Origin: Rhodocyclaceae bacterium
Lineage (GTDB): Bacteria; Pseudomonadota; Gammaproteobacteria; Burkholderiales; Rhodocyclaceae
Direction: 5' to 3'
Assembly: GCA_016721505.1 (NCBI GenBank)
Contig: JADKHX010000002.1
Coordinates: 37,126-101,125, forward strand
Length of the DNA stretch: 64,000 bases
Positions 9,769 through 51,552 of this stretch are shown in pieces. Position numbers and translations under genes: made by a program. Below the pieces are notes generated by a model. It did no database searches. It was not told where the DNA came from and saw only the letters and a list, made by a program, of their open reading frames with translations. Positions within the stretch are counted from its first letter, which is position 1. Each line of letters begins with the position of its first letter.

Positions 9769-9863
9769 AACGGCGGCGAAGCAGGGGTTTCGCAAAGCAT
9801 TGCTCTGTGCCTGCGTAGCGGGTAGTCCGTACACAGCCGACACTGCACACCAGCACCAACTAG
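9769..9863 (+). repeat. 95-nt long-form repeat element, copy A
   Basis: AACGGCGGCGAAGCAGGGGTTTCGCAAAGCATTGCTCTGTGCC...CACCAGCACCAACTAG. Aligns by eye over its full length with copies at 11109 and 50968. Ends in the 13-nt core. Confidence 0.8.
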
Positions 9864-11108: not shown

Positions 11109-11203
11109 AACGGTGGCGAATCAGGGATTTCGCAAAGCATTGCTTTGCGCTTGTGTAGCGGTTCGGCTGCACTAAGTCGAGGCTCCACCCCGGCACCAAT
11201 TGG
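11109..11203 (+). repeat. 95-nt long-form repeat element, copy B
   Basis: AACGGTGGCGAATCAGGGATTTCGCAAAGCATTGCTTTGCGC...CGGCACCAATTGG. Same orientation as copy A. Contains the perfect 9-bp inverted repeat CGCAAAGCA-T-TGCTTTGCG. Confidence 0.8.
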
Positions 11204-11269
11204 CGAAATTTGCGTCGAAGTCGTTTTATTCGAGCTTTCACCATCACCCGTCGGGCATACACTTTTACG

Positions 11270-32496: not shown

Positions 32497-33333
32497 CTAA
32501 TCCCACCCGCGCGGCACCACATATTGCCGACTGGGTTGGCAAAAAATTCGCCGGTCTTCCAAGCGCAATGCGGTTAGCGAACCACCCCACAAACAACCCG
32601 TGTCGATGGCCGCCAAATCCTTTCGCATCACCAATCCCAACGCCGACCAATGGCCACAAACGATGAGCGCAGTGGCATTAACACGATGCGCCGCGTCAAA
32701 CCAAGGTGTGCAGTTTTCCGGCCCCTGCGCGGGTGGTGCTTTACTGCCCGCCGCGCGGAATTCCATAGCCCCGTCGTTAGTCACATAACGCATCCGCGTC
32801 ATAGCGTTCACGATCACCCGCAACCTATCCCAGCCGGATAAGTCGTCCGACCACGCCGCCGGTTCCGAACCCCACATTTGAGCCATAAATTCACGATAGT
32901 TTGGCGCGCGCAGGGCAGCAGAAACTTCGTCCGACAATTGCTGCGCTTGTGCCAAAGACCAACTTGGCAAAAGTCCGGCATGCACCATCGCCCATTCACC
33001 GTGACGATGAAACAAGGGCAGACTGCGCAACCAGTTAAGTAACTTGGCTCGATCAGGCGCGGCAAGAATTTCCGCCAGCGTGTCTTCGCGATTGGCTTTG
33101 CCAAACCCTTCGGACTGCATTAACAAATGCAAATCGTGATTGCCTAAAACCACAGTTGCGGCGTCGCCCAGCGATTGGACATAGCGCAGCACCTCAAGCG
33201 ACTGTGGACCACGATTGACCAGATCGCCAACGAACCACAAACGATCTTTGCGCGCGTCAAACTCGACGTGATCCAGCAAGGATTGCAAGGCATCAAAACA
33301 GCCTTGCACATCACCGATAGCGTAAGTCGTCAT
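32497..33333 (-). CDS. apaH: bis(5'-nucleosyl)-tetraphosphatase, symmetrical
   Basis: 278 aa with GDVQGC, GDLVNRGP and GNHD metallophosphatase motifs. Confidence 0.93.
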   Translation of the reverse strand: MTTYAIGDVQGCFDALQSLLDHVEFDARKDRLWFVGDLVNRGPQSLEVLRYVQSLGDAATVVLGNHDLHLLMQSEGFGKANREDTLAEILAAPDRAKLLNWLRSLPLFHRHGEWAMVHAGLLPSWSLAQAQQLSDEVSAALRAPNYREFMAQMWGSEPAAWSDDLSGWDRLRVIVNAMTRMRYVTNDGAMEFRAAGSKAPPAQGPENCTPWFDAAHRVNATALIVCGHWSALGLVMRKDLAAIDTGCLWGGSLTALRLEDRRIFCQPSRQYVVPRGWD

Positions 33334-33796
33334 AGCAATTATTTTTGCGCGGCGAGCATCTTGGCGTATTTGGCAAAGCTGGCGATGCAGCCAATCAGGA
33401 TGTGCACCAAGCCCGCTGCGCCGTCGAGAAAGCCAAGCCGAAAGAAATAGAACTTGATGAAGCGAACCGCCGGCGAAATCAAAAGTTGCGCAATATTCGC
33501 GCGCTTGCCTTGTGCCAAAGCAATCTGGGCCGCCAGCGTGCTATATCGATTTTGTTTGGCCAAATAGTTGTCCAAGGACTCGGCCGATTCATGCAATAAA
33601 TCTCCCGCCAAAGTGCCAGTCTCACCACGATTGACGATGACCTTTTCATGCACGATATCAGCCGACCAACGCGCCGCGCGACGATCAAACAAGCGCAAAC
33701 TCCAATCCGGATAGCCTTCGCCATGACGTAAATATCTGCCCATAAACCGATTGCAGCGGGCAAAGCGATAGGCGGTTGTTTGCGCTGCAGCAGTAT

Positions 33797-33814
33797 CGTC
33801 AGTTGGTGCTGACG
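33797..33814 (-). repeat. core motif hairpin copy inside the GT2 insert
   Basis: CGTCAGTTGGTGCTGACG: 6-bp stem with a TTGGTG loop. It supplies the TGA that ends the N-terminal frame. Confidence 0.6.
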
Positions 33815-33841
33815 CGGAGTCTCGGCCCTTTGGCCGGGGGC

Positions 33842-33862
33842 GGGGGGGGGGGGGGGGGGGGG
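33842..33862 (+). repeat. 21-nt G homopolymer (poly-C on the coding strand)
   Basis: Counted directly. Preceded by GGGGGC and followed by CTTTGCGGGGCCCCCCCCTCCCC. Confidence 0.95.
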
Positions 33863-34332
33863 CTTTGCGGGGCCCCCCCCTCCCCGCTTTTAGTGACTTC
33901 ATTAGCGAGCTGCGCGCTTACCCGCTCATCCGCATCTACACACAGCACCCAATCATGCATCGCTTGTTCAACCGCGAATTGCTTTTGTGGCCCGAAGCCG
34001 CGCCAATGCGTCTGTATTACCCGCGCATCGAGGCTCGTCGCTAACTCAACCGTTGCATCTTCGCTACCCGAATCGACCACCAAAATCTCGTCGCAAAATG
34101 CAACACTGGCCAAGCATGCAGCGAGTTCGTTCGCGGCGTTTTTGGTGATGATGACTGCAGAAATGCGGCGCGCTACCGGTTCAACCAATGAGGCCATTTG
34201 GCGCTCCTAAAAATTGTGCAATCCAAAGCCGACTATGAGGCAGGCCGTGAGTGGGTCACGGCCTGATTATCGCGCCCGACTCGCGGTTTGGTTGCGGCGC
34301 ATAGCGTGCGGAATTCTTGGATAATCTTCGTC

Positions 34333-35286
34333 ATGCGCATTCTTCTAATAAAAACTTCGTCCATGGGCGACGTGATTCACAATTTGCCGGTGGTTAACGA
34401 CATTGTGGCGCGATTTCCCGATGCGCAAATCGATTGGGTGGTTGAGGAAAATTTTGCGGAGATTCCTCGTCTGCATCCGCGTGTCCAGCAAGTCATTCCG
34501 GTCGCGCTGCGGCGCTGGCGCAGGGCGCTTTTTGCTGGCAACACTTGGTCAGAGGTAGGCGAATTTCTTCGCGCCCTTCGTCGCGAAAATTACGACTATG
34601 TGATCGACACGCAAGGCTTGTTGAAGAGTGCGCTCATCACTTTTGTTACACGGGGCGTGCGCTGCGGCTACAACGCGGCATCCGCGCGCGAGGGTTTGGC
34701 AACGGTGGCTTATGACCGGCGATTTGCGGTGACGACCACGCTGCATGCGGTTGAGCGCAATCGCGCTTTGGTGGCGCAGGCAATTGGCGGTGTAAATAGT
34801 ACGTCCCTGAATTACGGCATTACACCGCCATCAAATGCCGCGGAAACGCAGACGACCGCAGTGCTGTTGACAGCAACTTCTCGCGACGACAAGCTGTGGT
34901 CGGAGACGCATTGGGTGGATTTGGGTTGTCATTTGAGCGCGCGCGGATTGATCTGCCAATTGCCCGCTGGTAGCACAATCGAACGCGAAAGGGCGACACG
35001 ATTGGTGCAGCAAATTCCCAATGCCATTGCGCTGCCGGCACAGGGATTGACGGCACTTGCTCAGGTGCTTGCCAGCGCCAAAGTCGTCATTGGTGTCGAC
35101 ACCGGTCTGGTTCATTTGGCTGCTGCGCTGGGACGCCCGACGGTGGCTATCTATTGTGCCTCGGACCCAACGCTCACTGGTGTTCTGGCTGCCACGCCGT
35201 TTGTCAATTTGGGTTCAAGTACTCTGGCGCCGAGCGCGATTGAGGTGATTGCGGCGACCGATGGTTTACTTGGTGCGGCGCATTGA
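34333..35286 (+). CDS. waaC: LPS heptosyltransferase I
   Basis: MRILLIKTSSMGDVIHNLP N-terminus and GVDTGLVHLAAALGRP motif. Start taken at ATG 34333. Confidence 0.9.
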   Translation: MRILLIKTSSMGDVIHNLPVVNDIVARFPDAQIDWVVEENFAEIPRLHPRVQQVIPVALRRWRRALFAGNTWSEVGEFLRALRRENYDYVIDTQGLLKSALITFVTRGVRCGYNAASAREGLATVAYDRRFAVTTTLHAVERNRALVAQAIGGVNSTSLNYGITPPSNAAETQTTAVLLTATSRDDKLWSETHWVDLGCHLSARGLICQLPAGSTIERERATRLVQQIPNAIALPAQGLTALAQVLASAKVVIGVDTGLVHLAAALGRPTVAIYCASDPTLTGVLAATPFVNLGSSTLAPSAIEVIAATDGLLGAAH

Positions 35287-36572
35287 TGGCGCGATTTATT
35301 TACAGCCTTTGTGTCGTATTGCTACTACCGGTGGCAGTAATTTATTTGCTCTGGCGAGCGCGCAAGCAACCAGAATATTTGAAACATTGGGGTGAGAGAT
35401 TTGGTTTTTTCGGCCACCTTTCGCGGCCCGCAAATGGGCTTTTGATTTGGCTGCACGCGGTGTCCGTCGGTGAGACGCGCGCGGCACAACCGTTGATTTC
35501 TGCGTTGCGTGAGCGCTATCCCGATCATCAAATATTGATTACCCACATGACACCCACAGGGCGCGCTACGTCGCAGGAATTGTTTGGCGATTCAATTGCA
35601 CAGTGTTATCTGCCCTACGACACAACCTGGGCAATGCAGCGCTTCTTGCGGCATTTCTCACCACGATTTGGCCTCGTTATGGAAACGGAACTGTGGCCGA
35701 ACTTAGTTGCCGCCTGCGCGCAACGTGATGTGCCGTTGATGTTGGTGAATGCGCGCCTGTCTGAAAAATCGGCGGCGGGCTACGCGAAACTTCCTGCGCT
35801 GGCAAAAGAAGCGCTGCAAGGTTTGCACGCTATTGGGGCACAATCGCAAGACGATGCAGATCGACTAACTGCGTTGGGCGCGCGCTCGCCGAGCGTCGTC
35901 GGCAATATCAAATTTGATATCGATGCGCCGGAAAACCAGATCGCGCTAGGTAAAAATTTTCGTACGCAAATCAGACAACGCCAAGTATTTCTTGCGGCTA
36001 GCACCCGCGAGGGCGAGGAAGCCTTGTTGTTGGATGCATGGTCGCGCAACGCGCCAGTTGGCGCTGGTGATACGCTTTTGCATAGCCCGCCGTTGCTCAT
36101 CATCGTTCCACGCCATCCACAGCGCTTCAACGATGTCGCGGCACTGGTTCAAGCACATGATTTGTGCCTGCAACGACGTAGCGAAAACAACGCCATCGAA
36201 GCCGGAACCGACGTGCTGCTAGGTGATTCAATGGGCGAAATGTTCGCTTGGCACACGCTCGCTGACCTTGCTTTTATTGGCGGCAGCTTGCTAGATTTTG
36301 GTAGCCAGAATTTGATTGAAGCCTGCGCGGTTGGCACGCCAGTGTTACTCGGACCGTCGACCTACAATTTTGCTGACGCCGCGTTTGAGGCGCAGGCTTG
36401 TGGTGCGGCGTTAGCGATTATTGATGCGGATGATTTGGTGCAAAAGGCGCGGGCTCTTTTGCACGATGCTGCGGCGCTTGCCCGCATGTCAGAAGCCGGA
36501 TTGCGCTTTGCTCAACAGCATCGTGGTGCAACGGCGCGGACGATGGAACTGATCGCCCGCGTCGTTAATTGA
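35286..36572 (+). CDS. waaA: 3-deoxy-D-manno-octulosonic acid (Kdo) transferase
   Basis: WLHAVSVGETRAAQPL motif. ATG 35286 overlaps the waaC stop (TGATG). Confidence 0.92.
   Translation: MARFIYSLCVVLLLPVAVIYLLWRARKQPEYLKHWGERFGFFGHLSRPANGLLIWLHAVSVGETRAAQPLISALRERYPDHQILITHMTPTGRATSQELFGDSIAQCYLPYDTTWAMQRFLRHFSPRFGLVMETELWPNLVAACAQRDVPLMLVNARLSEKSAAGYAKLPALAKEALQGLHAIGAQSQDDADRLTALGARSPSVVGNIKFDIDAPENQIALGKNFRTQIRQRQVFLAASTREGEEALLLDAWSRNAPVGAGDTLLHSPPLLIIVPRHPQRFNDVAALVQAHDLCLQRRSENNAIEAGTDVLLGDSMGEMFAWHTLADLAFIGGSLLDFGSQNLIEACAVGTPVLLGPSTYNFADAAFEAQACGAALAIIDADDLVQKARALLHDAAALARMSEAGLRFAQQHRGATARTMELIARVVN
36052..36075 (-). repeat. degenerate motif copy inside waaA
   Basis: CGCCAGTTGGCGCTGGTGATACGC, read as APVGAGDTL. 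One core mismatch. Confidence 0.4.
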
Positions 36573-50957: not shown

Positions 50958-51552
50958 GATGGCTCATAACAGAGGCGAAACAGGGAATTCGCAAAGCACT
51001 GCTTTGCGCCTGTGTAGCGGGTCGGCTGTACTAAGCCGACACTGCACGTCAGCACCAACTGGCAAATTCGGGCTAGACGAACGCGACCTCGATCGCGAAA
51101 TCATTCTCGCCACGCAAGGCGGCTTGCCGCTGGTATCACGTCCCTATCATTTCATCGCCGAGCAACTTGGGGTCGATGCAGGGCAAGTGCAATCACGGCT
51201 TGCCGCCATGCTGGCCGATGGTCGCATTCGCCGCATCGGTGCAGTGCCGAATCACTACGCCATCGGCTACACGGCCAACGGCATGAGTGTCTGGGATGTT
51301 GAAGATGCCCTGATCGACGAATTAGGCGCGCAAGTCGGTGCGCTAAGTTTTGTGACGCATTGCTATCGACGTCCGCGCCGTTTGCCAGCGTGGCCTTACA
51401 ACTTGTTTGCGATGGTGCACGGCGCTACGCGGGATGAGGTGCAAGCCGATGTCACAAAAATTGCTGCCTTGTTAGGTGACGCTTGCCGTGGCCACGACGT
51501 TCTCTATAGCAGCCGGATACTGAAGAAAACCGGACTGCGTATCGGGGGTTAA
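50950..51552 (+). CDS. nirH: siroheme decarboxylase subunit NirH (5' end runs through a repeat element)
   Basis: The conserved NirH sequence begins about LDERDLDREIILATQGGLPLVSRPY (from ~51073). The only in-frame ATGs (50950, 50959) lie upstream of the 95-nt repeat copy C, which stays open in frame. Confidence 0.8.
   Translation: MLEMAHNRGETGNSQSTALRLCSGSAVLSRHCTSAPTGKFGLDERDLDREIILATQGGLPLVSRPYHFIAEQLGVDAGQVQSRLAAMLADGRIRRIGAVPNHYAIGYTANGMSVWDVEDALIDELGAQVGALSFVTHCYRRPRRLPAWPYNLFAMVHGATRDEVQADVTKIAALLGDACRGHDVLYSSRILKKTGLRIGG
50968..51062 (+). repeat. 95-nt long-form repeat element, copy C
   Basis: AACAGAGGCGAAACAGGGAATTCGCAAAGCACTGCTTTGCGCC...GTCAGCACCAACTGG. Contains the perfect palindrome CGCAAAGCA-C-TGCTTTGCG and the hairpin GTCGGC-(8 nt)-GCCGAC. 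Confidence 0.8.

Follow-up and report, generated by a model that had tools for sequence, protein, structure and literature searches.

A poly-G tract that splits an LPS-core glycosyltransferase gene in a Rhodocyclaceae bacterium is very probably an artefact, set within a dispersed in-frame hairpin repeat

The window analysed here is the whole of a 64,000-nucleotide stretch of contig JADKHX010000002.1, taken from the assembly GCA_016721505.1 of a Rhodocyclaceae bacterium. Within it lies a family 2 glycosyltransferase (GT2) gene of a lipopolysaccharide (LPS) core cluster, which is printed as two open reading frames (ORFs) parted at a run of 21 guanines (G21). The gene, its neighbours and the features around the run are as follows (positions are those of the window):

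32497..33333, minus strand: ApaH-like metallophosphoesterase, downstream of the GT2 gene (PF00149)
33339..34197, minus strand: GT2 glycosyltransferase gene of the LPS-core cluster; two ORFs as printed, an intact 286-aa ORF in same-species contigs
33799..34197, minus strand: GT2 N-terminal reading frame, 132 aa (PF00535, E 1e-15)
33339..33826, minus strand: GT2 C-terminal part, its frame one base along, undamaged; 92% amino acid identity to the same-genus genome G001
33795..33891, minus strand: long-form copy of a dispersed repeat, 99 nt (33 codons) in the same-species contigs and 97 nt in the window; sense frame 0
33797..33814: hairpin 3 of the repeat, CGTCAGTTGGTGCTGACG, undamaged, part of the 30-nt basic unit
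33827..33883: block judged to be corrupted, with 30 substitutions and 2 nt missing when set against same-species contigs
33842..33862, plus strand: G21 run, judged an artefact from the assembly's other poly-G junk and from same-species sequence
34333..35286, plus strand: heptosyltransferase of glycosyltransferase family 9, a divergent neighbour (PF01075, E 5e-47)
35283..36572, plus strand: Kdo transferase, WaaA-type (from the ORF, with PF04413 and PF00534 on the same-species product)

As the window gives it, the G21 run has CCGGGGGC upstream and CTTTGC, GGGG, CCCCCCCC, T and CCCC downstream; followed from the hairpin on, the printed order is CGTCAGTTGGTGCTGACG, CGGAGTCTCGGCCCTTTGGCC, GGGGG, C, G21, CTTTGC, GGGG, CCCCCCCC, T, CCCC and GCTTTTAGTGAC. 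Even a run of 12 guanines appeared in none of 100 shuffles of the sequence. The N-terminal frame terminates at a TGA at 33799-33801, which falls within hairpin 3 of the repeat, and the C-terminal frame is open on the minus strand from 33902 to 33339. The full span of the gene, 33339-34197, measures 859 nt and is therefore 3n+1, and a count of codons shows that the removal of one G fuses the two frames into 285 aa. All of these particulars (the letters of G5-C-G21, the split frames, the TGA in the hairpin, the 859 nt and the 285-aa ORF regained by the loss of one G) had been part of the original prediction and were reproduced in the window, and its placing of the gene in an LPS-core cluster is borne out by the adjoining family-9 heptosyltransferase, WaaA-type Kdo transferase and ApaH-like phosphoesterase. 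Its description of the inserted DNA needs correction, however: given there as a GC-only insert of about 90 nt, the extra DNA amounts to 67 nt relative to an insert-free gene, lies within the 97-nt repeat copy and is not strictly GC-only.

The most informative comparison is with the same gene in further strains of this species. When the C-terminal frame was used as a protein query, it retrieved P0001, a 286-aa protein that is 99% identical, and among the matches listed its gene stands on six contigs (L044-L049) of other assemblies of the same species. Three of these belong to NCBI metagenome-assembled genomes (GCA_016718245.1, GCA_017984975.1 and GCA_017986635.1), in which the neighbouring genes are the same, and the remaining three are short ENA metagenome contigs. 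The same-species contigs represent other strains, their background divergence from the window over the 4.6 kb around the gene being 1.2-1.4%. When the 859-nt gene is aligned at the DNA level, only three differences fall outside positions 33827-33883 (two in the roughly 790 positions beyond the insert), and the C-terminal part has a single mismatch, at 33486, to the same-species contig L044. Inside this 57-nt block there are 30 substitutions, 21 of which produce a G, 7 a C and 2 a T, together with a 2-nt gap, and the block is 54% different from the same-species contigs. On the plus strand those contigs read GGAGTCTCGGCTTAGTACAGCCGAGCCGCTACGCAGGCGCAAAGCAGTGCTTTGCGAAACCCCTACTTCGCCGCTTTT, as against the GGAGTCTCGGCCCTTTGGCCGGGGGCG21CTTTGCGGGGCCCCCCCCTCCCCGCTTTT printed in the window; across the positions of the G21 run they have CTACGCAGGCGCAAAGCAGTG, which holds no homopolymer. 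Over the whole repeat copy at 33795-33891 they have KSGEVGVSQSTALRLRSGSAVLSRDSASAPTDD, and the ends of the window's own copy fit the family consensus, AACGGCGGCGAAG...CAGCACCAACTGGCGAA.

One further patch in the same 4.6 kb is dense in differences, and it is the only other one. It lies at 34800-34860, in the heptosyltransferase gene, and comprises 12 mixed substitutions relative to the same-species contigs against a background of about 1.3%. To judge from its sequence, it looks like ordinary loop variation in a naturally variable stretch, and not like junk.

In the same-species contigs the insert measures 69 nt, is in frame and encodes GEVGVSQSTALRLRSGSAVLSRD. Its presence varies within the species, at positions equivalent to 33815-33884 of the window: the product has 286 aa in L044-L049 and 263 aa in L051, a contig that is 99.4% identical, has no insert and comes from a sample sibling to those of two insert-bearing contigs. 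Forms with and without the 69-nt piece are both drawn from sibling ENA samples (ERZ27250669 to ERZ27250671). The gene is also intact at the same place in same-genus genomes; G001 is without 67 nt that are present in the window, and G003 has a diverged, partly deleted copy of the repeat at the same site. In another species the gene (locus L050, product P0010) is 75% identical and has an insert at the same position that is about 96% identical, with 3 differences in 71 nt, which suggests that the piece either inserted independently, with the 30-nt unit as its specific target, or was exchanged between species. Genera outside this genus have some 9-10 fewer residues at the insert site. The named relatives of the gene belong to Rhodocyclaceae, Sulfuritalea, Rugosibacter and similar groups, nearly all of them represented by metagenome-assembled genomes. 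The original prediction had proposed that the locus be compared in related strains; the poly-G tract was found in none of the same-species or same-genus copies examined, namely the six insert-bearing contigs, the insert-free L051, G001 and G003.

Long G runs occur elsewhere in the same assembly. A scan for homopolymers of at least 9 bases across all 21 contigs (3.55 Mb, 54% G+C) returned about seven poly-G sites besides the GT2 locus:

Contig C1, 167910: a G16 run, where similarity to G001 and G003 ends
Contig C1, 288416-288572 (L022:891-1073): junk with G20, G24, A14, A15 and C10, in a thiolase (acetyl-CoA acetyltransferase) gene
Contig C6, 285214-285466: many runs, up to G28
Contig C8, 43575: a G13 run
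Contig C8, 57203-57539 (L025): G73, G93, G57 and more
Contig C8, 162091: a G10 run
Contig C14, 127195-127379: runs up to G28, where similarity to G001 and G003 ends

Two of these sites can be read against intact counterparts. In the thiolase gene, 183 nt of G, A and C runs are flanked by a duplicated 18-mer, with the result that TPMGGF is encoded twice and the protein as printed reads ...TPMGGF(junk)TPMGGFQGDF...; in the two relatives G001 and G003 the thiolase flanks have precisely these 18 nt as their overlap. At C8:57203-57539 the assembly has some 340 nt, nearly all of them G, in place of a stretch of about 1.58 kb present in both G001 and G003. Measured against these relatives, the two sites cannot be biological. 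In the contigs as printed, runs of at least 10 bases are of G at eight sites and of C at one, a strand bias that is unexpected of a genome and that a step acting on the oriented contig could give. Nor did the four sites read against relatives show any further contingency locus with a similar tract, two of them being junk and two lying where similarity ends.

How the tract at the GT2 locus is to be read follows largely from these two comparisons. The differences from the same-species gene are confined to one short block and are directional (28 of the 30 are to G or C), and junk of the same type stands elsewhere in the assembly, between the thiolase 18-mers and in place of the missing 1.58 kb. 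Within a gene that is otherwise almost identical, a block of 54% difference whose changes nearly all lead to G or C homopolymers points to corrupted sequence rather than to slippage or decay, and the loss of two bases within it would produce the apparent frameshift. From sequence comparison, then, we hold it very probable that the G21 tract and the frameshift are a sequencing, consensus or assembly error and not a feature of the organism. The original prediction had offered such an error as one of its two readings, and in direction this was right; what does not stand is a mere miscount of the run, for runs of G and C appear to have overwritten a 57-nt stretch, in which two nucleotides were also lost. 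A real homopolymer of which the length alone was miscalled would leave the frame off by one base, as it is here, and errors in homopolymer length are common, yet with no homopolymer of any kind in the same-species contigs, which carry CTACGCAGGCGCAAAGCAGTG across the G21 positions, this explanation is exceedingly improbable.

The other reading offered was a true phase-variable contingency locus, in which slippage of the poly-G tract toggles the LPS glycosyltransferase. It draws on a tract that does lie in a surface-glycan ORF, on a frame that the removal of one base restores, and on the classical pattern of the Neisseria lgt genes. We nevertheless regard it as extremely unlikely, given that no tract of any length exists in the six same-species contigs, where the 286-aa gene is intact, or in L051, G001 and G003, that slippage cannot yield a block in which 30 of 57 bases differ, and that other poly-G tracts of this genome are junk. 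The suggestion that the G-rich strand could form a G-quadruplex lapses together with the tract. It might instead be supposed that the gene is a real pseudogene specific to this strain, broken when its repeat copy decayed into G and C runs. Its frames are indeed broken as printed, and decay at this site is known in another species, in the diverged and partly deleted copy of G003; but elsewhere the gene differs from L044 at 3 positions, which leaves no time for 30 substitutions to gather in 57 nt, and changes of which 28 in 30 go to G or C and form homopolymers are unlike the mixed changes at 34800-34860. We consider such a pseudogene very unlikely.

If the tract is an artefact, the real site would consist of a 99-nt long-form repeat, made up of a 30-nt unit with a 69-nt piece nested in it, lying in frame in a loop of the GT2 enzyme; runs of G and C would have replaced the middle 57 nt of this copy, with the loss of two bases. 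Over-calling of G at low signal across a hairpin-rich region is one possible cause. Another may be a consensus or polishing step that acted on a mixed population with long and short forms of the gene; forms with and without the insert occur in sibling samples, which makes such a mixture at a site rich in hairpins plausible as the cause. On the other side, some 97 further long-form copies came through assembly cleanly in this genome. A duplication of flanks like that around the thiolase junk was also considered, CCCTTTGGCCGGGG and GGCTTTGCGGGG being alike, and was rejected, as the corruption runs position by position and does not take the form of inserted junk.

The real gene most likely encodes an intact 286-aa enzyme in which the 33 residues contributed by the repeat make up a disordered loop at the surface. 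In the AlphaFold model of P0001 (mean pLDDT 81) the insert falls in a low-confidence segment, residues 109-136 (pLDDT below 50), that lies between a helix at 95-116 and a strand at 141-149; the flanking blocks are mostly above 90. The enzyme would tolerate a flexible loop of 33 residues and stay active.

The original prediction had remarked that such an insert had not been seen in WaaE/KdtX-type enzymes. The observation has another explanation, namely that the insert is a mobile, in-frame repeat that is present in some close relatives and absent from others. A BLAST search of the insert against its own genome found dozens of copies, and extension of these gave a 99-nt consensus, AACGGCGGCGAAGCAGGGGTTTCGCAAAGCACTGCTTTGCGCCTGCGTAGCGGGTCGGCTGTACTAAGCCGACACTCCACACCAGCACCAACTGGCGAA, of which there are 97 copies in the genome (BLAST, E <1e-4); those in the window include 9769-9861, 11109-11207, 33795-33891 and 50968-51066. 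The consensus folds into three hairpins that show compensatory changes, with covariation at the pairs 13-46 (GC 42, AU 19, GU 18), 26-38 (AU 61, GC 17) and 54-73 (GC 55, CG 22). What the original prediction had called a core hairpin is hairpin 3 of this long form. The hairpin-3 motif by itself has 789 matches genome-wide, most of them within a 30-nt unit, AACGGCGTGTCACCAGCACCAACTGGCGAA, and in the long form such a unit holds the nested 69-nt piece just behind AACGGCG, the insertion point apparently being AACGGCG|TGT; the nested piece has about 100-200 copies. Each of these lengths (30, 69 and 99 nt) is divisible by three, and the long form has three open frames out of six. A clean long-form copy matched no family in Rfam. 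Full elements are plentiful in the genus, and of 80 genera sampled in the family 15 have partial relatives; among 120 other genomes sampled across the order there were matches in 4, all weak or partial. Two Y1_Tnp (IS200/RAYT-type) genes are present in the genome, at C21:210417-210752 (minus strand) and C15:16609-16935 (plus strand), and no clear repeat copies flank either of them with the motif used.

At the GT2 insert position the 263-aa forms of the gene, that of G001 included, have the 30-nt unit. We considered whether the form without the 69-nt piece might be a recent deletion and rejected this: the short form, AAAAGCG-TGTCGTCAGC, fits the genome-wide 30-nt unit (AACGGCGTGTCACCAGC...), and it is thus an un-nested unit and not a scar. 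The 30-nt unit may accordingly be pictured as having entered the GT2 loop in an ancestor of the genus, with the 69-nt piece nesting into it later and in some lineages only.

Many other copies also lie inside genes. Of the 97 long forms, 38 are wholly inside long ORFs, and all 20 of the host ORFs tested have Pfam families. These hosts are an IcmF-like mutase, DnaE, Mfd, LeuRS, TopA, a GyrA/ParC-type subunit, PriA, UvrC, MutL, DnaX, GatB, an outer-membrane factor, an M23 peptidase, LysA, an ABC permease, a methyltransferase, ThiF, IspH, a DUF3108 protein and PBP4. The insertion can be seen in the extent of the domains themselves, whose Pfam spans hold about 30-39 extra residues: 309 residues for 276 profile positions in GatB_N, 306 for 267 in LYTB and 120 for 90 in HHH_6. 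The short units fall in ORFs of at least 120 aa in 250 of 479 cases, compared with 84% for random positions, and they favour two frames, PVGAGDTP and NGVSPAPTG. Among randomly drawn host ORFs of short units, 11 of 14 have a Pfam family, the hosts including GlxRS, LapB, an EPSP-synthase-family enzyme, TruB, LolB, ArgJ, TsaD, TolB and others. Some 300 copies appear to be in frame within genuine genes, among them essential ones. A search of the literature, which was not exhaustive, found no description of this repeat family. We are inclined to see in it, with rather more confidence than doubt, an undescribed two-tier selfish repeat that has colonised coding sequence beyond the scale of the Rickettsia palindromic elements (RPEs), its 69-nt piece inserting specifically into the 30-nt unit.

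These distinctions have practical consequences. The label of contingency locus would place a false phase-variable LPS gene on record, and pseudogene is not the right annotation for the GT2 gene either. More generally, with several stretches of poly-G junk in this assembly, any call of a homopolymer or a frameshift in it needs the support of raw reads. The site is nonetheless of value as a clear case, from nature, of a mobile hairpin repeat lying in frame in an enzyme loop, one species having the gene both with the 69-nt piece and without it. Since the family occurs in hundreds of genes (dnaE, leuS, topA and gatB among them), both the tolerance of proteins towards such insertions and the mechanism of insertion become testable outside Rickettsia.

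It remains to set the locus beside the systems that it most resembles. Poly-G artefacts are a product of two-colour Illumina chemistry, and gap-filling or polishing junk occurs in draft assemblies. The sites described here share with these the long G runs with scattered other bases, the dominance of G on the printed strand, and junk that stands between duplicated flank ends or replaces real sequence; the GT2 site differs in that its junk overwrites the gene position by position and is not appended. The LOS glycosyltransferase genes of the Neisseria lgt and Haemophilus lic type are phase-variable contingency loci governed by homopolymers or tetranucleotides. The GT2 locus as printed is like them in having a homopolymer within a surface-glycan glycosyltransferase ORF whose frame is off by one, but it does not belong to that class, since no copy examined in the species or the genus has the tract. 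As to the enzyme, it resembles the WaaE/KdtX-type glycosyltransferases, as far as sequence and gene order indicate, in its GT2 domain, its length of about 260 aa without the insert and its position next to a heptosyltransferase gene and waaA. NCBIfam assigned the intact protein to no specific family, giving generic GT2 matches below the cut-offs, and the nearest solved structure by sequence is GmaR, in its N-terminal GT2 domain only.

For the repeat, the REP/REPIN sequences and their RAYT transposases offer one parallel: a short hairpin unit (about 30 nt) whose 5' tail is conserved, hundreds of copies, compensatory changes in the stems and, in this genome, the two Y1_Tnp genes. Unlike REP/REPIN sequences, the present repeat is not predominantly extragenic, about half of its copies being inside ORFs, and the motif used revealed no clear repeat copies beside the Y1_Tnp genes. 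The other parallel is with the RPEs, described as 'selfish DNA in protein-coding genes' and known for unusually frequent in-frame insertion (2024 review, PMC10969869). The host differs, being here an environmental Rhodocyclaceae-like betaproteobacterium and in the case of RPEs an obligate intracellular alphaproteobacterium; so do the units, which are of 30 nt, or of 99 nt with the nested 69-nt piece, as against about 100-150 nt in RPEs, and the copies are far more numerous here, with about 790 motif matches. What the two would have in common, on a likeness drawn from architecture, is a dispersed hairpin repeat with a length that is a multiple of three and several open frames, lying in frame within many unrelated housekeeping genes and, at the GT2 locus, modelled as a disordered loop. 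By this analogy the repeat family is probably a new RPE-like system.
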